Assembly (NCBI GenBank): GCA_051439605.1
Contig: JBFRWN010000032.1
Span: 64,001-128,000, forward strand
Source: Synechococcus sp.
GTDB lineage: Bacteria > Cyanobacteriota > Cyanobacteriia > Thermostichales > PCC-7336
Length of the DNA: 64,000 nt
Direction of reading: 5' to 3'
The position numbers were made by a program, and so were the translations under genes. Shown in pieces: positions 1-9,861 of the stretch. The notes below the pieces were generated by a model. That model was not told where the DNA came from. It worked only from the letters and a program-made list of their open reading frames with translations, and searched no databases. Within the stretch, counting starts at the first letter, position 1. Every line of letters begins with the position of its first letter.

Positions 1-261
1 AACCTTGCGGGCTCCTCGCCAGGGAAAGCGGCTCATCGCAGAAACCGACAGGTTTACAGCCAGCAAGAACATCAGAAGCCCGAACCAAGCGCTCTTATAG
101 ATATCCCGCTGCACAATCTCTGAACCCACCCGCGACTCGTAGAAGGTGGTCCCCATCAATACAGCCGCGATCGCCATCAACAGCGGGACAGCGAGCTGTA
201 TGGATCCCAAAAACTTAATCAAAGGATTTTTGACGCTGGAAGGGCTGTGTTTCGCCGGCAT
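1..261 (-). CDS. ResB/Ccs1(CcsB)-like cytochrome c biogenesis protein, N-terminal part (runs off the window's left edge)
   Basis: Hand translation from ATG at 261: MPAKHSPSSVKNPLIKFLGSIQLAVPLLMAIAAVLMGTTFYESRVGSEIVQRDIYKSAWFGLLMFLLAVNLSVSAMSRFPWRGARKV. It is open to base 1. The 'FLGS..LAV.LL', 'GT..ES', 'IY.S.WF..L..LL.VNL' and 'R.PW' pattern matches ResB N-termini. Not in the supplied ORF track. Confidence 0.75.
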   Translation of the reverse strand, partial: MPAKHSPSSVKNPLIKFLGSIQLAVPLLMAIAAVLMGTTFYESRVGSEIVQRDIYKSAWFGLLMFLLAVNLSVSAMSRFPWRGARKV

Positions 262-445
262 AAGCTTGCCAATCAACTGCGATCGTATACCCACACAAAC
301 AAATCAAAAGCAAAGGAGTTTGTGCCTTTGAGTACAAATCAAAGGAATTACTATGCTTGGATGAATAATTATTATGCAATTTCTGCAATAGAATCAAGCC
401 GGTCGTTTGATTTCTGTTGCCGAATTCGGAACAACTGGCGATTTT

Positions 446-461
446 TGTATTTATGGTTACA
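446..461. promoter_or_regulatory. NtcA-type binding site (TGTA-N8-TACA)
   Basis: TGTA TTTATGGT TACA, flanked by a T-run and an A-rich run, in the AT-rich divergent intergenic region 262-974. No canonical TAN3T -10 seen ~22 nt away. Confidence 0.55.
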
Positions 462-974
462 GAAAAATAAACTGTTGTGTTTATTGCGTGGCTTGAGAGA
501 TTGCCATACAGTCAGATTTCCCACAACCAACTAACCAGCAATCAGAAAATTGGGCAAAAATACGTAAATGCAAAGAACGTATTTAAGAAATGTAAAATCT
601 ACAAAACCTTCGCGATAAACCTAAAAATGGTATTGCTGGCTACGATTCCTGGTCTCTGAAGCGCCTAAATTTCAGACTTAACGCACCAACGTGCAATTCA
701 AGCTCCCACTTTGTTTAATGCGGTTTATCAGTAGAAATACTGGAAAATCTTACACTGTTCGATTAATTCCTGCTCTAAAGCAAAGCCTACTCGATGCCAA
801 CGTTGGCAGAAAATCTGGCGATTTCTATGTTGGATGGCGGGTTTCTAGTGGATATCTAACAGGACTTAGAGGAAGTGTTTTAGCCGGTGTGACAATCACT
901 TGCCGAGTTTCCTTTACTGCGTAAAGAGCTCTAATTGTTTGTCCGCAGTCTCACAGTAACGAGGAAACAAAGAC

Positions 975-1505
975 ATGTCTTTGAAGGTTGAGCTCTTAGA
1001 AAGCAGCTTTGAGAAAGTGAAGCCCAACGCTGCAGCTTTTGCAGACTCTTTCTACAGCAATTTATTCACAACTGCTCCCGAAGCAAAGCCCCTGTTTGCG
1101 AATACAAACCTGGAAGAACAGAAGAAGAAATTGCTGGCCTCTTTGGTTTTAGTGGTGGAGAACCTTCGCAACGGCGATGTCCTCGGTTCTACTCTTCGAG
1201 GGCTAGGGGCTCGTCACGTCAAGTACGGAGCATTACCTGCCCATTACCCTATTGTCGGCGGAGCGCTGCTGGAAACCTTCGAGCAGTACCTGGGAGACGA
1301 TTGGACTCCCGATGTCAAGCAGGCCTGGGTGGATGCCTACGGGGCTATTACAGAACTCATGCTGGATGGTGCTGACTACTCTTCTGAAGAGGTTGCTCTG
1401 CCACCCGAGCCTTCCGTATCCGTTAGCGATGGCGATCGCAGTGGAATGCTTCCCATTGCTGGGGCTGTCATTGGGTTTTTGATCCTGGGTCTTTTCCTTC
1501 TCTAG
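975..1505 (+). CDS. Single-domain globin (flavohemoglobin/Vitreoscilla-type globin domain) with C-terminal hydrophobic membrane anchor
   Basis: FY(B10)..LF...PE.KPLF, Q(E7)KKKL, LGARH(F8)VKYG, HYPIVG.ALL, AW..AY. RBS GAGGA upstream. Tail GMLPIAGAVIGFLILGLFLL. Confidence 0.9.
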   Translation: MSLKVELLESSFEKVKPNAAAFADSFYSNLFTTAPEAKPLFANTNLEEQKKKLLASLVLVVENLRNGDVLGSTLRGLGARHVKYGALPAHYPIVGGALLETFEQYLGDDWTPDVKQAWVDAYGAITELMLDGADYSSEEVALPPEPSVSVSDGDRSGMLPIAGAVIGFLILGLFLL

Positions 1506-1643
1506 GTCTAAGGCAATAGAGTGTGCGTTCTTCCACTGGCATCCAGTCCACGTCTGTCTGGACATAGACGCTAACGGCAGACCGAACTCATTCGATGAGC
1601 TGAGGGCTTCTAGCTCCGTTGTGTTTGTGGTTATCCAGTTTGC

Positions 1644-2264
1644 ATGTTGAAGTTGAGAACGGCGGCGATCGGAATAGCGTTGATAGCGCTTACTGCTTGG
1701 GCCGTTATTTTTGCCCTCGGGCTCGACCAACGCATTGCCTTCTTGCCCGGCACCACCTCTTCAGGACACCACTTGTTTGAGGCCTCCTGCCAATCCTGCC
1801 ACCAAGGATTTCAGAAAGTCTCAAATGACACCTGCAACCGCTGCCACGAAGCGGAGCTAGCAGAAGATATTCACGGCCGGAAAAAATTCCGCGATCCCCG
1901 TTGGGCGGTCTACATAGAAGAGATTGATGTGTTGACCTGTACCACCTGCCATGAAGAACATATGCCCATGTCTGGCAGGGGCGTCAATCTGCCGCCAGAC
2001 CTATGCATGAGCTGCCACGACCACATTATTGAGGCGGGCAACTCCGACAGCTTAGATAGTCATCTTGGCTTTACCCCCGATGGATGCTGGACTGCAGGCT
2101 GCCATAACTTCCACGATCACCGCTCGATCTCAACAGGGTTCTTGAGGACAAACCTGGACCAGCCCAACTGGTTGCCAGAACCCGATCGCCTAGAGCGCGA
2201 CATTCAGCCACAGGTGGCAGTGGCTCCTGCCCCCGATCTCAATCGCGAGTTATGGGGGAACTGA
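1644..2264 (+). CDS. Exported/membrane-anchored multiheme c-type cytochrome (4 CXXCH + 1 CX4CH)
   Basis: N-terminal hydrophobic helix. Motifs CQSCH, CNRCH, CTTCH, CMSCH and CWTAGCH. Confidence 0.88.
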   Translation: MLKLRTAAIGIALIALTAWAVIFALGLDQRIAFLPGTTSSGHHLFEASCQSCHQGFQKVSNDTCNRCHEAELAEDIHGRKKFRDPRWAVYIEEIDVLTCTTCHEEHMPMSGRGVNLPPDLCMSCHDHIIEAGNSDSLDSHLGFTPDGCWTAGCHNFHDHRSISTGFLRTNLDQPNWLPEPDRLERDIQPQVAVAPAPDLNRELWGN

Positions 2265-3130
2265 TCGTGCATTACCTTTCTCGGCTGCGAACTAGATGCT
2301 TGAGTGGTAACTTACCCCTTCACTCCTCATTAGCCACAGTTCTTGTCGTGGGGCTCTGCTGCTGGCTGAGCTTGAGTTCTCCTTCATCAGCCCTAACTTT
2401 TGAAGAGGCGACAGAACTCTGGACCGGCAGCACCCATTCTCTTCAGAACGTGAATTGCTCCAGCTGCCATCAGGTAGAGGATAGCGGTGCATTCGTCACA
2501 GCACCCAATCGCGAGAGTTGTCAGCAATGCCACGAATTTTCAACACAAACGTTTCTATTGGGCAAACACGGTATCCGGATGTTGGAGGGGCAATCTGCAC
2601 TCACTCCAGAGATGGCATTACTTCCCATGAAACCGGCATCCCACGGACTAGAGATGAACTGCAACGTTTGTCATGACGTGCACGCTCAGAACGTGCGGAC
2701 TGCTGCAGTGGATGCCTGCCTCACCTGCCACAGCGACCGACATTCTCTCAACTACGTCAATTCCAAGCATGCAGGCTTGCTTGTAGGGAATGAAGATTTG
2801 CCCAGGCCGGGGGGGGCTGAAGTGACTTGTGCAACTTGTCACCTACCGCGCCAAGCAGTCAACGGAGCTGTAATGGTGAATCACAACAACACCTATACCC
2901 TGAAACCGCGCGATCGCATGGTGGCGGATGTTTGCATGAATTGCCACGGCATGGAATTTGCCTACAACGCCATTTTTGACGATGAGCTGGTCACGGGTAA
3001 TTTCGACCGTTTCCCTGACATGAAGCACCAGTCGCTGCAAATGTCGCGGGCGGAGCGAGACCGAAGACAATCTCGCCACCCCCCACAGATTTCCAACCCT
3101 AACAAGTTGGTCGCTTCTCCACCGAATTAG
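2252..3130 (+). CDS. Exported hexaheme c-type cytochrome
   Basis: Motifs CSSCH, CQQCH, CNVCH, CLTCH, CATCH, CMNCH. Signal-peptide-like stretch ending SSPSSA. Overlaps the previous gene by 13 nt; exact start uncertain. Confidence 0.88.
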   Translation: MGELIVHYLSRLRTRCLSGNLPLHSSLATVLVVGLCCWLSLSSPSSALTFEEATELWTGSTHSLQNVNCSSCHQVEDSGAFVTAPNRESCQQCHEFSTQTFLLGKHGIRMLEGQSALTPEMALLPMKPASHGLEMNCNVCHDVHAQNVRTAAVDACLTCHSDRHSLNYVNSKHAGLLVGNEDLPRPGGAEVTCATCHLPRQAVNGAVMVNHNNTYTLKPRDRMVADVCMNCHGMEFAYNAIFDDELVTGNFDRFPDMKHQSLQMSRAERDRRQSRHPPQISNPNKLVASPPN

Positions 3131-3155
3131 TACTCTCTCTCAAGGAAAAACAACC

Positions 3156-3833
3156 ATGGATGTCTTGACTTCTATCAGAGCCTGGATCGGGCGTTTTAAG
3201 CCCCGCACTCTGGCGATTTCTACCTTCTTAGTAGCAGCGGTTTTCACCGTTGTGGCATGTGGTGGTTCTACCCCGACAGCATCTGCCCCCACTGGCATTC
3301 CCCCCGAGCAAGTGGTTGACTACATTGCCGTTACAGCAAAAGGTGCCCGTACCGCCTACGTGAAACACGTCGTCAACCGCGTAACCGAGTTGGAAGGGGA
3401 GCCTGTGGCGCGCGAAGGTGCAGTCGTTGACGCCAACTCCACCGAATTCTGGCAAGACGAAGATGGTATTCCTTTACCGGCTCAAATGTTCCGCTTGGCT
3501 TCTGAAATTACCTCTGATAGCGATCTGGCCAGTGGCATGACCATCGGTCTAATTTCTAGCTGGAACATCAACGACGCCCACTCCCCCAAAACCGAGTTTG
3601 AGAAAACTGCCATTAAGGAGATGGAGGAAACTGGCGAGCCTGTGAAGATCGAACAGGAGATTGCCGGTCAGCGCTTCATGACTGCGATGTATCCGGATAA
3701 GGCTGTAGCCGAAGCTTGCGTCACTTGCCACAACACCCACCCCGTTCACCTCGAGCGCTACCCCGACAAGGTATTTGCTCTTGATGATGTCATGGGTGGC
3801 GTCGTTATCAATCTGCCCTTAGGGGACGCATAA
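3156..3833 (+). CDS. DUF3365/Tll0287-like monoheme c lipoprotein
   Basis: Lipobox-like VVAC. 'PLPAQMFR', 'IN....PKTEFEK.A', 'YPDKAV.EACVTCHN', 'DVMGGVVI.LP'. RBS AAGGA. Confidence 0.8.
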   Translation: MDVLTSIRAWIGRFKPRTLAISTFLVAAVFTVVACGGSTPTASAPTGIPPEQVVDYIAVTAKGARTAYVKHVVNRVTELEGEPVAREGAVVDANSTEFWQDEDGIPLPAQMFRLASEITSDSDLASGMTIGLISSWNINDAHSPKTEFEKTAIKEMEETGEPVKIEQEIAGQRFMTAMYPDKAVAEACVTCHNTHPVHLERYPDKVFALDDVMGGVVINLPLGDA

Positions 3834-4043
3834 GCCGATTTGTAGAGCAGGTTGCTCGTTCGGCGGGTGGCCTGTTCATTTGGAATTCCCCCTTGGCGAG
3901 TTTTCTGAACCCTAGACTGTGCAGAAGTTTTATAAGTTGTCGCTTGCGCTATGGGTGGCAATTTTAATCGATCTTGTTTCAGGGGAAGTATCGAATATTC
4001 CTACTTTGCAGAGTCGAGACATCTAACAGTCCAAGGCTGCTCT

Positions 4044-4631
4044 ATGAAACCCACATTCCCCACCCTTTCCGTACTGGCTGCAATCTCGGTTTTATTGGTC
4101 GTACCCTTTATCATCAGTGACTGGTACGTTCCTGCCATCCGCGACACTGTCTTTTACACCCATCAAATTTTGCGTCGCGGACTGTACAAAGAAATAACCG
4201 GTTTCGTTTGTCTGGGATTTTTTGCCATTGAAATGGTCCTTACCCTGCGCAAGCGCGGGGGACGCTGGAAAATTAAGTTGCCAGGTTCAATTTTCTTCTG
4301 GCGTAGCTTGCATATCTTTTTGGGAGTGGGTTTTATTGCTGCTACCCTCATCCACAGCGTCGGGGTACACGGCAGCTTGTTCAATCATGTTTTTCTGGCT
4401 GTCTTCATCGTGCTTTCTTTGATTGCCATGATGGGCGTTGCGCTAGAAACTCGTCTCGTGGGGTTGACCGCTCGCAAAGTGTCTTTACTGCCCGTCGGAC
4501 TTCCTGCGATCCCTAAAGGTCAATTAATTCGGCAGCTTAGATCCGTATGGTTAGGGGTGCACATTGTCTTGGTCAGCCTGTTTACTGTGTTATTGGGCTT
4601 TCATGTCCTTTTGGCTTTCTACTACGAGTGA
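4044..4631 (+). CDS. Integral membrane protein, ferric-reductase/cytochrome b-like (putative diheme b)
   Basis: About 5 hydrophobic helices. Two carry H-X13-H pairs (LHIFLGVGFIAATLIH and VHIVLVSLFTVLLGFH). ATG 4044 preferred over the ORF start at 3951. Confidence 0.65.
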   Translation: MKPTFPTLSVLAAISVLLVVPFIISDWYVPAIRDTVFYTHQILRRGLYKEITGFVCLGFFAIEMVLTLRKRGGRWKIKLPGSIFFWRSLHIFLGVGFIAATLIHSVGVHGSLFNHVFLAVFIVLSLIAMMGVALETRLVGLTARKVSLLPVGLPAIPKGQLIRQLRSVWLGVHIVLVSLFTVLLGFHVLLAFYYE

Positions 4632-4700
4632 AATTCTGCTTACGAGGACACTTTTCAGATAACACTCTAGTCGAGTTCTCTGTTTGTCAATCCATCAACT

Positions 4701-5186
4701 ATGTTTACTCAGCTCTCTTCCCTAAGAAGCCTATCTGTCTGTTTAATTATCGTTGTAAGTCTTCTGCTGATGCTTCAGCGCCCTTCTCGTGCTAACTCGC
4801 TGCTGTCTGGGTATGCAGCCCTGAAGCAAGCCGTAAACGATTCCGTCCTCTTATCTGCAGCAGTCGCGGACAATAAGCCTGCGCTAATAGAGTTCTATGC
4901 CGATTGGTGTAGCGTCTGTCGATCCATGGCCCCCACAGTAGGACGATTGCGCGCACATTATGGAGAGCAGATTAACTTTGTCATGCTAGACATTGACGAT
5001 CCGAGATGGAGCAAGCAGGTGCAAGACTTTGGGGTTATCGGAGTTCCCCATTTTGCATTTATCTCCGACCTGGAATCCCCGTTTGGATCTCGCCAATTGC
5101 AGCAGACCCTAGTGGGCAGGCAACCCGCCTACGTGATGGCCGCCGCCCTCGAAGGCTTGTCAATCGCAGACCCCACGGCAAACTGA
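4701..5186 (+). CDS. Membrane-anchored/exported thioredoxin-like protein (TxlA/HCF164/ResA-like)
   Basis: IEFYADWCSVC..MAP active site, GVPHF cis-Pro motif, N-terminal hydrophobic segment. Confidence 0.8.
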   Translation: MFTQLSSLRSLSVCLIIVVSLLLMLQRPSRANSLLSGYAALKQAVNDSVLLSAAVADNKPALIEFYADWCSVCRSMAPTVGRLRAHYGEQINFVMLDIDDPRWSKQVQDFGVIGVPHFAFISDLESPFGSRQLQQTLVGRQPAYVMAAALEGLSIADPTAN

Positions 5187-5220
5187 ACCCACAGACTCTA
5201 TCGAATTTCAGTCTATAAGT

Positions 5221-6147
5221 TTACGCTGGAACGTTAAGGGCTCCCCGCTTGCGCAGATCGGCCTTGAGTTCATCTGTCAGGCCCAAAACGTCCGTCATGC
5301 TGGTACCGCTGACATTCGCCCCCTCAAACAACGCCCCTCGCAAGTTGGCACGCTCTAGGTTGGCATCAATCAGATTAGCTTGCGTAAATACTGCCCCTGA
5401 GAGATTTGCCCCCTCCCAGCTGGTACCAAACAACGATGCGTTTGTGAAGTCTGCCTGGCTGGCATAAGCGCCATCGGCGATCGCCGTATCCAGCTGGGCC
5501 TCGAGAAAGATACTGTCAGCCAAGTAAGCTTCACCCAAGTTAGTGCCGATTAAATCTGCAGAAGTCAGATCGGCCTTGGCCAGTCGCACCCGCGTCAATT
5601 TACTTTTATCCAGTTGGGTCCCCACGAGCTTGGCGCGAGTCAAATTGGCCCCATCCAAGTCCACCTGGACGAGCTTGGCACTGGAGAAATCAGCTTCTGT
5701 CCAGTCTGACGCTTTCATGTTTGCTTTCACTAAATGGGTGGCTTGAAAAACGGCTTTTCTGCCGCTGCAGTCCTCCAGATTCGCTCGATCCATCTGGGCA
5801 AGCGAGGCATCTGCACCATCAAAAATTGCCCCCAGGAACCGTGCGTTCGTCGCTGTTGCTTGTCTCAGGTTCGCCCGTTCCAGTCTTGCAGCAGTCAACT
5901 GGGCATGGCTTAGATCGGCCCCTTCTAATACAGTCTCAACCATCCAAGCCCGAATCAACAGCGTGTTGTTAAAGTTCGTCCGTTTGCATGAGGCTTGAGA
6001 GAGATTAGCCACTCGCATGTAAGCCCGCGAGAAGTCCCCCCCATCCAGACACCGGCCTTGCAACTCAATGTGGGCCAGCTCCTCTTTTGTTAAGGGCAGT
6101 CCCTTTTGAAGGCGATCGAGCACCTCTTCAGGGGCTAGTACGCTCAT
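5221..6147 (-). CDS. Pentapeptide repeat protein
   Basis: Almost entirely A(D/N)LXX-type repeats over ~270 aa. Confidence 0.9.
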   Translation of the reverse strand: MSVLAPEEVLDRLQKGLPLTKEELAHIELQGRCLDGGDFSRAYMRVANLSQASCKRTNFNNTLLIRAWMVETVLEGADLSHAQLTAARLERANLRQATATNARFLGAIFDGADASLAQMDRANLEDCSGRKAVFQATHLVKANMKASDWTEADFSSAKLVQVDLDGANLTRAKLVGTQLDKSKLTRVRLAKADLTSADLIGTNLGEAYLADSIFLEAQLDTAIADGAYASQADFTNASLFGTSWEGANLSGAVFTQANLIDANLERANLRGALFEGANVSGTSMTDVLGLTDELKADLRKRGALNVPA

Positions 6148-6329
6148 GGGCTAGATTTTCCTCACCAACCAATGTATTCAGCCCACTGTAAGCATAATCG
6201 GGGTCACGGTCGCCACTCGTATGTCAAAGGACGATAACTGCGATGCAACTTCGGCCAGGAATCCAAGCGAGTCGATTTTAAAGGGCAGGTTAGGGCAACC
6301 ATATAGTGGCAAAATCGATGAAGGCGAGG

Positions 6330-6779
6330 TTAGGACGGCTTAACATTAACAGTAATTTTTGAAGAAATCACCGGATGGTCATGGGGAACGTGCAAGTAGT
6401 TGCCCAGAACCAATTGGAGTGTGTGTTTTCCCGGGGGGAGGGTGATTTCTGCCTCGGTTTGCCCGCCTCCAAAATGGCGTACGCGATCGCTTTTGGGCAA
6501 AGAGGATTTCAGATCGGGTAATTCTGCTACATCAACCAATAAATGATGGTGACCGGTATTGGCTTTATCCACCCCTGCAGGTGCAACACCCATGCCCGAT
6601 AAGCCAAAGCTGACGGTAAAGGTGGGGGGGACGGTGTCACCATCTTTCGGAAAAATAATGTACTCCCGCGCTGTTTCAGGAGCATGGGATACAAATTCGT
6701 CAGCCAGTGCTTGGGTCGGAGATACCAGCCAGCAGCAGACGACAAAGATTACTCCCATTAGGACAGCAATACGGTTCAT
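6330..6779 (-). CDS. DUF4399-like exported protein
   Basis: Signal peptide; 'FGLSGMGVAPAG...NTGHHHLLVD', 'HFGGGQTE', 'LPPGKHTLQL'. Confidence 0.85.
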   Translation of the reverse strand: MNRIAVLMGVIFVVCCWLVSPTQALADEFVSHAPETAREYIIFPKDGDTVPPTFTVSFGLSGMGVAPAGVDKANTGHHHLLVDVAELPDLKSSLPKSDRVRHFGGGQTEAEITLPPGKHTLQLVLGNYLHVPHDHPVISSKITVNVKPS

Positions 6780-7239
6780 CAGTCGATCTCTTGAGCACTA
6801 TTTCAGTAGACCATCAAGTGCCGAATTTCTCCAATCAGGGCTCTCGAATCAATTGCTGTTCGAGAGTCAATCAGCACTCTCGGATGAAGCAGCTGCCCAG
6901 GGACTTCATGTCCCAGCATAAATAGATGCTCAAAAATCTACTCTCATAGTTTCTTTTGACGCCCATTTTTGGTAAAACCTATGTCTGATTTCAGACCGTA
7001 CTGAATTCTGCCTAGAAATGATGCATGCTGTGCGCGCTGGGGCATTCTAGCGCTAAGCTTCGTCCGCTCCGGTAAATAAACCCTTCTCAACAAATTGTAT
7101 TGGGGAAAACGGTTTAGTATGTTGGTTCGATGCTTGAATCAGGCAATAGCTGGTGCAGTCTCAACTGCAATGGTAGCTGTTCCCATTTCGTATCTGCCTT
7201 CAACGGCAATCTCAATTAGCGCGCATTGTGGATAGCCCC

Positions 7240-7452
7240 ATGTCAGATCCTAAACTCCAAGACAGCTTGTATGACCTACTGGAAGACTTCGGTTTAGAAG
7301 ATGTATTGTTTGCACTGTATCGATATGCCGATACCCAATCGCGATTAGCTGCGACGTTGCAACAAGCCCATGCAAGTGAAGACTGGGATCATAAAGCATG
7401 TGCGATCGATGTTGCTTGCGAAGCGATCGACACCGCCCATCGAGGAGTTTGA
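7240..7452 (+). CDS. Small acidic hypothetical protein
   Basis: ORF MSDPKLQDSLYDLLEDFGLEDVLFALYRYA... with helical, protein-like composition in an otherwise empty spacer. Alternative GTG start at 7228. Confidence 0.55.
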   Translation: MSDPKLQDSLYDLLEDFGLEDVLFALYRYADTQSRLAATLQQAHASEDWDHKACAIDVACEAIDTAHRGV

Positions 7453-7776
7453 ATCTTTCGTGAAATGGGTGAATACCCATTATCTGCTGTGGCTTTGACC
7501 TGCTAAGTTCGGGTGGTGGGGTGATACCACCATTTCCTCTCTTCACATAAAGTATTTACAATGACGGACAGAAACTACAGCTTTCTCTCCACAACGAGCT
7601 GATGAAGTCTATCCGTATTGCTTTACAATCAGCAATGTTGCTGTGGGCGTCTAGAAGGATTCTTGTGGAGGTCGGTGGCTGGTCTATCCTGCCTTTCCCG
7701 AAGACTTTCTGAAACCCCAATCGCACCTGATGGTGGTCGCCAATAGGTATGTAGCACTGACTCGTAGAGAACAAAG

Positions 7777-9861
7777 ATGAAAGACCTTTCCAGCTATCGC
7801 AATATTGGTATCTTCGCCCACGTGGACGCGGGCAAGACGACCACGACCGAGCGCATCCTAAACCTCACCGGTAAGATTCACAAGATTGGTGAGGTGCACG
7901 ATGGGGCAGCCACCACAGACTTTATGGAACAAGAGCAAGAACGCGGTATTACAATTCAGTCCGCTGCTACCTCTTGTTTCTGGAAGGATCACCAGCTCAA
8001 TATTATTGACACCCCAGGTCACGTCGACTTCACCATCGAGGTTTACCGCTCCCTGAAAGTGCTGGATGGCGGTGTTGGTGTGTTTTGTGGCTCGGGTGGT
8101 GTAGAACCCCAATCCGAAACCAACTGGCGTTACGCCAACGAGTCTGAAGTTGCGCGGATCATCTACGTCAACAAACTTGACCGTACGGGTGCAGACTTCT
8201 TCCGTGTCGTTAAGCAGGTAGAAGAAGTCCTGGCCGCCAAGCCACTGGTGATGGTGTTGCCCATCGGTATTGAGAACGAATTTATCGGTGTGGTAGACCT
8301 GCTAACTGAGAAAGCATGGGTTTGGGACGAATCTGGAAAACCCGAAAACTATACGATTGAAGATGTCCCCGCCGATATGGTGGATGACGTTGCCACTTGG
8401 CGCGAACTGCTGATCGAGACGGCGATCGAGCAAGATGACGATCTAATGGAGAAGTACCTTGAGGGCGAGGAACTCACCATCGACGAGATCAAGTCTTGCA
8501 TCCGTAAGGGCACCCGCGATCTAGCATTCTTCCCTACCTACTGTGGTTCTTCGTTTAAGAACAAGGGTGTTCAGCTCGTGCTTGACGCTGTAGTCGATTA
8601 CTTGCCCAGTCCTGTTGAAGTCAAGCCTCAGCCTGAGGTGGACCTGGAAGGGAACGAGACAGGTAATGTGGCTTACGTCGATCCTGAAAAGCCTCTGCGC
8701 GCTTTAGCGTTCAAAATTATGGACGATCGCTTTGGAGCTCTGACCTTCACTCGCATCTACTCCGGTAAGGTCTCAAAAGGTGACACCATACTCAACAGCG
8801 CCACTGGAAAGAAAGAGCGGGTCAGTCGCTTAGTGGAAATGCATGCCGATTCTCGGGAAGAAATCGATACCGCTCAAGCTGGGGATATCGTCGCCATTAT
8901 TGGCATGAAGAATGTCCAAACCGGACATACACTCTGTGACCCCAACAACCCTGCCGTTCTGGAGCCCATGGTGTTTCCTGATCCGGTAATCTCCATTGCC
9001 GTCGCTCCCAAAAAGAAAGGGGACTCCGAAAAGATGGGTCTGGCGTTGAGCAAGATGGTTCAAGAGGATCCCTCCTTCCAGGTGGAGACCGACCAGGAAA
9101 CCAACGAGGTGATCATGAAGGGAATGGGAGAACTCCACCTCGACATCAAGGTGGATATCCTCAAGCGCACCCACGGCGTAGAAGTAGAAGTGGGTAAGCC
9201 TCAGGTGGCCTACCGCGAATCCATTACCAAGCTGATTACAGACAGCTACACCCATAAGAAACAAACGGGTGGAGCAGGTCAGTTCGGCAAGATCGATTAC
9301 ACGATTGAGCCCGGCGAACCCGGTAGCGGCTACACCTTTGAGTCCAAGGTCACGGGTGGTAACGTACCTCGCGAATACTGGCCTTCGGTTGAGAAGGGCT
9401 TCGGCACTAGTCTGGATAAGGGTGTTCTAGCTGGATTCCCCTGCGTAGACATGAAAGTCACCTTGATGGATGGTTCCTACCACCCTGTTGACTCTTCTGC
9501 TGTTGCCTTCGAAACGGCAGCACGAGCCGCTTACCGCCAGAGCGTTCCCAAGGCCGGGCCTCAACTCCTAGAGCCCATCATGAATGTAGATGTGTTCACC
9601 CCCGATGACTACGTGGGTGACGTCATTGGTGACCTGAACCGTCGTCGCGGCATGATTAAGTCTCAAGATGCAACACCCACTGGTGCCCGCATCAAAGCTG
9701 ATGTCCCCTTAAGCGAAATGTTTGGCTACATTGGCGACCTGCGTACCATGACCTCCGGTCGCGGTCAGTTCTCTATGTCCTTTGCCAACTACGCACCCTG
9801 CCCTAAGAACGTGGCAGATGTGGTTATTGCCGAAGCCAAGGAGCGCGCAGAATCGAAGTAA
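7777..9861 (+). CDS. fusA: Elongation factor G (stand-alone paralog, not in the str operon)
   Basis: [46 protein letters not shown]; 694 aa. Confidence 0.97.

Follow-up and report, generated by a model that had tools for sequence, protein, structure and literature searches.

Here we describe an operon at the left end of a 64,000-nucleotide stretch of Synechococcus sp. DNA (G000:C32:64001-128000, that is, contig C32 of the source genome G000; hereafter the window), in which genes for a globin, two multiheme c-type cytochromes, a lipoprotein, a four-histidine membrane protein and a thioredoxin follow one another downstream of an NtcA-type promoter. With confidence a little short of even, we propose that this operon encodes an outward electron conduit for the handling of nitric oxide (NO) or nitrite at nitrogen scarcity. 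In the scheme that we envisage NtcA would activate the cluster under nitrogen scarcity, and the membrane protein, a predicted di-heme cytochrome, would take electrons from ferredoxin and send them outward along an eleven-heme wire to the heme of the lipoprotein, which would act on NO or nitrite; the tethered globin would convert cytoplasmic NO to nitrate, for NarB. A transmembrane conduit running from a di-heme b protein to the multiheme cytochromes is very probable on the sequence evidence, outward electron flow is likely, and a nitrogen oxide is a slightly weaker favourite as the substrate.

The six co-oriented open reading frames stand where the first-pass annotation, made from the letters of the window, had put them, and Pfam and motif matches agree with the domains that it named, including the six CXXCH motifs of the hexaheme cytochrome (2252-3130), the single CXXCH and lipobox-type Cys35 of a DUF3365-like (Pfam Tll0287-like) lipoprotein, and the two H-X13-H pairs of the membrane protein, His90/104 and His173/187 counted from the ATG at 4044. 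Its count of five hemes for the other cytochrome stands for four CXXCH motifs and requires for the fifth that a non-canonical CX4CH be admitted. Among stop-to-stop frames of at least 60 codons in the 4.9-Mb genome, only these two cytochromes carry more than two CXXCH in one frame. The divergent ResB-like gene is likewise real and extends left of the window to 622 amino acids (aa), and directly beyond it, left of base 1, where a maturation partner had been thought to lie, we found a ccsA/resC gene of 591 aa; a ResB Pfam match (E 7e-13) was obtained for the homologue at locus L013 (loci are cited by our L numbers). With a tryptophan-rich CcsA, ResB and a CXXC thioredoxin all flanking the cluster, the System II gene set is complete. 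As the genome holds a separate housekeeping ccsA (contig C47) and a ccs1-like gene (C24), the pair beside the cluster appears to be an extra, longer one dedicated to it. The description of the module as self-contained holds for these maturation genes and fails for the electron supply, as no flavin or Fe-S reductase is present within the source locus.

The cluster is conserved as a unit. The hexaheme gene occurs in 11 of 61 relatives and in 39 of 301 genomes of the class, and we compared 41 loci (G000, 10 other carriers from the 61 relatives and 30 of 31 further carriers), several of which are cut by contig ends; a contig-edge fragment in G120 was left out of this set. All 41 hold the hexaheme and lipoprotein genes, and the membrane protein is present in 40, the pentaheme cytochrome in 39 and the globin in 38, in a near-constant gene order, a recurrence at odds with the alternative named at first pass, that the genes are not kept together in other genomes. 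Thioredoxin (35), ccsA (33), resB (32) and a Rieske protein (22) recur as well, and a flavin adenine dinucleotide (FAD) head is found in none. Carriers besides G000 span 12 families, close kin among them not being independent. The nearest named homologue of the hexaheme protein is that of Synechococcus sp. PCC 7336 (67%); cultured strains with homologues are PCC 7336, that of the S7335_5184 record and Rhodopirellula baltica. The Rieske [2Fe-2S] gene, whose product has a twin-arginine-like N-terminus, follows ccsA in its 22 loci (e.g. L134:15340-15813) and is absent from the G000 locus, the best match in the G000 genome to the operon-type protein being weak (E 1.6e-16). This protein could be a further redox partner.

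The same core is found beyond the cyanobacteria, in Planctomycetota, Verrucomicrobiota, Pseudomonadota, Myxococcota and others. A profile search returned 399 representatives, many of 400-500 aa with ten CXXCH and one CX4CH or with eleven CXXCH, and of 600 stretches picked up by scanning named genomes 571 were confirmed; the best 80 of these, biased toward a Planctomycete-like query, were used. In all 80 the pentaheme and hexaheme halves form one undecaheme protein, and in 73 the membrane domain is the C-terminus of a protein of FAD, rubredoxin-reductase-type and BFD [2Fe-2S] domains; of the remaining seven, three have membrane fusions cut at a contig edge and four come without upstream DNA. 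The fusion head matches positions 1-464 of the 794 of NirB (E 7.8e-123), below the family cut-off, and the siroheme domain is absent from the fusion, which gave no NIR_SIR Pfam match. This joining of a diaphorase head to the membrane domain supports the transmembrane conduit suggested at first pass and turns against quinone as its donor, as the homologues point to a cytoplasmic one. Looking for extended versions of the membrane protein drew a blank for want of sensitivity, and the fusion emerged via gene context. That the two window cytochromes are halves of one undecaheme had, like the NtcA promoter, gone unnoticed at first pass. The lipoprotein is present in 72 of the 80 loci and a globin in 60 (51 of the 3/3 type and nine truncated haemoglobins), whereas the thioredoxin, found in 35 of 41 cyanobacterial loci, is present in none. 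An independent set of 80 metagenome loci, mostly short contigs, gave the fusion in 53, the lipoprotein in 65, a globin in 35, a truncated haemoglobin in 4 and nasT in 16. One homologue of 831 aa, P0154, carries the undecaheme part behind a long, multi-pass, transporter-like membrane domain and could be a gene-calling artefact.

His90, His104, His173 and His187 of the membrane protein are invariant in 94 of 94 sequences, the pairs lying on two helices of its model (predicted local distance difference test, pLDDT, 92.5), and the window protein matches the tail of the fusion profile (positions 493-665, E 1.3e-16); we infer a di-heme cytochrome b. Weak Pfam matches (E up to 0.5) among the 94 are to DUF4405 (63), Ni_hydr_CYTB (39) and Ferric_reduct (6), the window protein reaching no cut-off and one headless homologue just passing that of Ferric_reduct (28.2 vs 28). 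No match came from a PDB sequence search with membrane-protein profiles or, at E 0.001, from Foldseek with the membrane protein. Headless loci in the cyanobacterial gene order also exist outside the cyanobacteria (L183/L184, L185 and L192, from a scan with sister-group proteins), and downstream of two of them, L185 and L192, lie genes for a cytochrome c, for a ferredoxin with a single cluster and for a nitrite reductase of the NirA type. The step from NirB to NirA is a switch from reduced nicotinamide adenine dinucleotide (NADH) to ferredoxin as donor. Since these two headless loci carry ferredoxin with a NirA-type reductase, in parallel with that switch, ferredoxin may by analogy be the donor in cyanobacteria, a suggestion that we regard as evenly poised. 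The nitrite reductase of L192 bears a C-terminal Rieske domain. A stand-alone FAD oxidoreductase of 434 aa, homologous to the NirB head, is encoded elsewhere in the source genome (G000:C52:4533-5834, L168); we considered it as the lost head and discarded it as a general donor: 9 of the 301 genomes hold close orthologues, four of these genomes being carriers, and the five weaker matches include Rieske-FAD proteins (three inspected). Charge of the cytoplasmic loops was also tried as a sign of ferredoxin docking and set aside as uninformative: cyanobacterial loops are more basic (7.0 vs 5.1; 3.9 vs 3.0) but longer.

The model of the hexaheme protein (mean pLDDT 82.8) retrieves the hydroxylamine oxidoreductase family, the top 11 Foldseek rows being all HAO, HDH or IhOCC (best E 5.6e-4), and structural alignments to these give middling Z scores of 8.2-8.7 with root-mean-square deviations (rmsd) of 3.8-4.7 over 185-190 aligned residues (4.1 over 188 at Z 8.7). 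Aligned to 6H5L, it finds partners in heme motifs two, three, five and six of that structure but offers nothing at the fourth, which we take to be the catalytic heme. CXXCK is found in none of the window proteins, all of whose cysteines are accounted for. Outside the motifs, the histidines invariant among 64 sequences number five in the pentaheme half and six in the hexaheme half, and because these spare histidines match the five and six hemes, all eleven hemes can, as far as sequence tells, be bis-His; catalytic members of the HAO family, by the available text of PMC9250108, carry penta-coordinated hemes. All eleven motifs are plain CXXCH in 11 of 66 listed long homologues, so that the CX4CH spacing is dispensable. 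The thought that the multiheme proteins are enzymes is disfavoured by the missing HAO catalytic-heme motif and by spare histidines equal in number to the hemes, and the undecaheme assembly is probably a wire or electron store rather than an enzyme. A quick midpoint-rooted tree placed the cyanobacterial hexahemes on one side of a branch (22 of 84 rows, SH-aLRT 99).

The lipoprotein is an exported, Cache-type CXXCH domain protein that scores 64.8 bits with PF11845 against a cut-off of 24.1 and is remote from Tll0287 itself (E 0.021). Its lipobox probably places it in the periplasm, the lumen being the alternative. Its only cysteines are residues 35, 188 and 191, leaving no distal Cys ligand. Of 113 sequences, 111 conserve Met111 and 108 His195, the rest being gaps. 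By extrapolation from an alignment to 5B82, Met111 tentatively falls within a few residues of the distal Cys of Tll0287, at the position that we presume this Cys to occupy. The heme of Tll0287 is described as His/Cys-ligated in the accessible part of 10.1101/2023.02.13.528314. As stand-alone sCache_heme members are reported to be redox-like and weak in NO binding (10.64898/2026.02.01.703092, which in its available portion leaves their function open), a redox role is supported for the lipoprotein and strong NO binding disfavoured. It may supply, in trans, the ligand-accessible heme that the HAO-like half is missing, a conjecture that we would sooner doubt than believe.

Tyr27, Gln49 and His81 of the globin, which we take to be the distal Tyr (B10), distal Gln (E7) and proximal His (F8), are invariant in 51 of 51 non-cyanobacterial sequences and kept in 39, 41 and 42, respectively, of 43 cyanobacterial ones. 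A hydrophobic C-terminal tail is present in 32 of the 43 cyanobacterial globins and in none of the 51 others. As it has no signal peptide, the window globin is predicted to be cytoplasmic. Its top PDB matches are entries named 'hemoglobin-like flavoprotein', bacterial haemoglobin, flavohemoprotein and single-domain haemoglobin; a likeness to Methylacidiphilum-labelled or Vitreoscilla-type haemoglobins is only presumed. No FAD domain is fused or adjacent to the 176-aa globin, and none of the 41 cyanobacterial loci has an FAD head. The operon globins of cyanobacteria are often doubled, and once tripled, before the membrane tail (L139:7030-8550; L145:7183-8148). The source genome encodes a second, soluble globin (G000:C111:1815-2312, L169), which closely matches the flavohemoglobin heme domain (E 1.5e-51) and is devoid of a reductase domain.

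Of the 41 cyanobacterial loci, 37 allowed an upstream stretch of up to 700 nucleotides (nt) to be extracted, and GTA-N8-TAC occurs in 20 of these 37 against 4.1 expected, other spacers occurring in 0-6. The full motif GTA-N8-TAC-N22-TAN3T faces the globin gene in 15 of the 37, from eight families, and is never found in the reverse orientation; in a shuffle control its mean was 0.12 and its maximum 2 in 500. A relaxed form is present in 24 of the 37 at a spacing of 22 and in at most one at any other spacing. GTA-N8-TAC followed by a TAN3T -10 box is, in the accessible text of PMC3898017, the canonical make-up of NtcA-activated promoters, e.g. those of nirA, urtA and glnA, and this class II architecture is present at 630-671 of the window, the whole genome having 16 such sites. 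The cluster is very probably, to judge from this architecture, under NtcA activation. A start at the predicted promoter would leave some 300 nt of leader (672-974) ahead of the globin; no Rfam match was found in window 1-7800, and scans for sigma-70 promoters and terminators gave chance-level results only.

A link of the system to nitrogen oxides, which had been raised at first pass, gains support. Genes for nitrate ATP-binding cassette transport, for nas/nir-family proteins or for NasT lie in 41 of the 80 non-cyanobacterial loci (31 of the 51 near-full-length ones); an Rrf2 regulator lies in 10 of the 80, two scanned examples scoring best to NsrR or RirA, below cut-off; and the globin has the residues of the NO-dioxygenase type. 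A near match to the NsrR palindrome, as given in the available text of PMC1274295, is found at L062. In eight Verrucomicrobiota loci (L055, L056, L060, L062, L077, L079, L082 and L087) the operon is preceded by a gene for an NsrR-like regulator, from which it is separated by a conserved palindrome or sigma-54-like element, and a truncated haemoglobin mostly stands in place of the 3/3 globin. In cyanobacteria narB is present in all 39 carriers. NO synthase was considered as the source of NO and rejected: PF02898 occurs in 9 of 301 genomes, in 1 of 39 carriers and not in G000. As regards denitrification, the G000 genome matches the COX1 family once and Hcp not at all.

Several observations weigh against the proposed conduit for NO or nitrite. 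A nitrate gene within 10 kb is missing in 39 of the 80 non-cyanobacterial loci (20 of the 51 near-full-length ones), nrtA is present in only 1 of 41 cyanobacterial loci, and the globin is missing in 8 of the 51. As narB occurs in 271 of the 301 genomes, its co-occurrence with the cluster is weak evidence, and most nitrate assimilators are without the cluster. The case for ferredoxin draws on two related short contigs (L185 and L192), and the best natural membrane fold match of the membrane protein, CybB (Z 9.9, rmsd 3.2, 130 aligned), is tied with unrelated helical bundles. Since NtcA, by the accessible text of PMC3898017, binds very many sites, its promoter does not name the substrate.

The direction of flow and the seat of chemistry can both be read otherwise. 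If the headless cyanobacterial chain ran backwards, electrons from the periplasm or lumen (released by oxidising hydroxylamine or another donor, or passed on by the linked Rieske protein) would cross the membrane and re-reduce the tethered globin. Loss of the FAD head (0/41) coincides with gain of the globin tail (32/43 vs 0/51) and with doubled or tripled globins, the Rieske gene stands beside resC in 22 of 41 loci, and the presence of the FAD protein that stands by itself is not tied to that of the operon, all of which would suit inward flow; yet in the fusion of ancestral type the head is an NADH diaphorase, which, if NirB chemistry is a guide, favours outward flow, the headless sister loci carry ferredoxin, and G000 itself lacks an operon-type Rieske gene in the locus and a good match to one elsewhere in its genome. 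We regard an inward conduit as unlikely. Slightly more doubtful still is a reading in which the undecaheme would itself reduce nitrite, NO or hydroxylamine in the periplasm as an enzyme of HAO/NrfA type, with its active site at the CX4CH heme or at a heme with a labile His and the lipoprotein as accessory carrier. The fold and sequence matches to the HAO/ONR family would fit it, all members of which can, in vitro, reduce nitrite or NO according to the available text of PMC9250108, and one homologue is annotated 'NrfA- nitrite reduction protein'. The empty fourth position in the 6H5L alignment, the lack of CXXCK, the parity of spare histidines and hemes, and a CX4CH motif that long homologues can do without tell against catalysis by the undecaheme.

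Two further readings dispense with a nitrogen oxide as substrate. The chain might be a valve that under nitrogen limitation dumps excess reductant on O2 or some external acceptor, Fe(III) for example, the globin then buffering O2. In its favour, an excess of carbon and reductant over nitrogen is what sets off NtcA promoters (PMC3898017, in its accessible part), a superoxide oxidase of cytochrome b561 type is the membrane protein's best match among natural membrane folds, and a headless homologue passes the Ferric_reduct cut-off. Against it, nitrate-assimilation genes, NasT and NsrR-like regulators recur beside non-cyanobacterial copies, and no adjacent outer-membrane porin or surface cytochrome family recurs in the 41 cyanobacterial loci, the search having covered loci rather than whole genomes. 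The same result lends no support to extracellular electron transfer, one of the functions suggested at first pass, and we consider the valve improbable. It is more improbable still that the lipoprotein and the globin merely report NO or redox state with no turnover of substrate: some sCache_heme domains are NO sensors (10.64898/2026.02.01.703092, in its available portion), but those of the sensor class come joined to signalling domains, while the cluster lipoprotein is a protein by itself. Its neighbours include no conserved family of kinases or cyclases (a histidine-kinase family occurs in 6/41 and 13/89 loci), and an eleven-heme wire with its own maturation genes would seem excessive for sensing.

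Compared with known systems, the cluster would work like the NO sink of Bjgb-Flp joined to an NrfHA-like periplasmic chain, yet it fails a defining feature of each system that it resembles, lacking the flavoprotein, the catalytic heme, the distal Cys and the siroheme. The likeness to Bjgb-Flp of Bradyrhizobium (narK-bjgb-flp-nasC) lies in a single-domain globin homologous to the heme domain of Hmp, Vgb and Cgb. Bjgb is, in the accessible text of PMC4724949, co-regulated with nitrate assimilation, proposed to remove the NO made there and served by a separate electron donor, and the description given there mentions neither a cytochrome b in the membrane nor a multiheme cytochrome, a lipoprotein or genes for maturation; the cyanobacterial cluster in turn is without a flavoprotein, bears a promoter of NtcA type and does not adjoin narB. 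With HAO, ONR and NrfA (6H5L, 4N4J, 4QO5, 2OT4) the hexaheme half shares fold and heme run, but it has no fourth-heme motif, is 292 aa long against about 500, has enough histidines to close all hemes, and is joined by an unrelated-looking pentaheme half. The lipoprotein is, like Tll0287 and other sCache_heme (PF11845) proteins, a stand-alone exported Cache domain with one CXXCH, and differs in having no distal Cys, a near-invariant Met and a tie to a multiheme operon; stand-alone members have no signalling-gene association in the portion of 10.64898/2026.02.01.703092 available. The non-cyanobacterial fusions join NirB 1-464 to a four-His membrane domain that invites comparison with di-heme domains of ferric-reductase/b561 type and, unlike NirB, have no siroheme domain, of which combination the cyanobacteria retain the membrane domain only. 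All three types of System II protein (CcsB/ResB, CcsA/ResC and ResA-type thioredoxin) flank the cluster, and the difference lies in a second, longer pair. The globin shares with the NO dioxygenases Hmp, Vgb and Cgb a predicted 3/3 fold and the Tyr, Gln and His set. No published description of the cluster was found, in a search outside which most subscription literature lay. We rate this as a new kind of system made of known parts.

Features of the operon and its flanks (positions in the window unless a contig is given)
Feature	Position	Strand	Remarks
Dedicated resB/ccsB, N-terminal part in window	1..294	-	Whole gene 622 aa, G000:C32:62426-64294
ccsA/resC, 591 aa, beyond resB, left of window	G000:C32:60574-62349		Pfam Cytochrom_C_asm E 4e-28; tryptophan-rich motif
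Upstream palindromic NtcA-type box TGTA-N8-TACA	446..461	.	No TAN3T at 21-23 nt on either strand; 25 such sites genome-wide
Candidate NtcA-activated promoter, canonical architecture	630..671	+	GTA-N8-TAC 630-643, 22 nt, -10 box TAAATT 666-671; ~300 nt 5' of globin
3/3 single-domain globin, 176 aa, C-terminal membrane tail	975..1505	+	Pfam Globin E 1.8e-17
Pentaheme cytochrome, N-terminal hydrophobic anchor	1644..2264	+	4 CXXCH + 1 CX4CH; N-half of undecaheme; 5 invariant spare His
Hexaheme cytochrome, signal-peptide-like N-terminus, 292 aa	2252..3130	+	6 CXXCH; C-half of undecaheme; 6 invariant spare His
Monoheme Tll0287-like lipoprotein (DUF3365, sCache_heme, PF11845)	3156..3833	+	E 1.6e-17; one CXXCH (CVTCH); lipobox-type Cys35
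Four-His integral membrane protein, predicted di-heme b	4044..4631	+	H-X13-H twice; open frame from 3951, homologues begin at ATG 4044
Exported or anchored CXXC thioredoxin (WCSVC)	4701..5186	+	Likely ResA/CcsX-type apocytochrome reductant
Pentapeptide-repeat protein, 308 aa	5221..6147	-	Linked to cluster; family in 23/41 cyanobacterial loci

The position and orientation of the pentapeptide-repeat family vary among its 23 loci. A gene of the ChaN heme-binding family adjoins the cluster in 10 of 41 loci (e.g. L143:3654-4568) and possibly serves heme supply. Farther right in the window (7777-9861) lies a gene for elongation factor G (EF-G), of which the genome has at least three full-length paralogues at 46-52% identity to this one. 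No plasmid match was found.

Multiheme cytochromes of the c type have, to our knowledge, no acknowledged place in the physiology of cyanobacteria. At its most specific, and here we think it improbable rather than probable, our proposal is that a wire derived from HAO lost its catalytic heme, that the Cache lipoprotein supplies one in trans for periplasmic NO or nitrite, and that the cyanobacteria rewired the chain from NADH to photosynthetic ferredoxin and tethered an NO-dioxygenase globin to it, which would give oxygenic phototrophs a multiheme export path, driven by light, for scavenging nitrogen oxides as a nitrogen source. If the conduit is as we propose, it would be an unrecognised sink for NO or nitrite in the nitrogen cycle and a natural path for photosynthetic electrons across the plasma membrane, and it would give those sCache_heme proteins that stand alone a defined partner and assay. 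The existence of cultured carriers makes the system directly testable.

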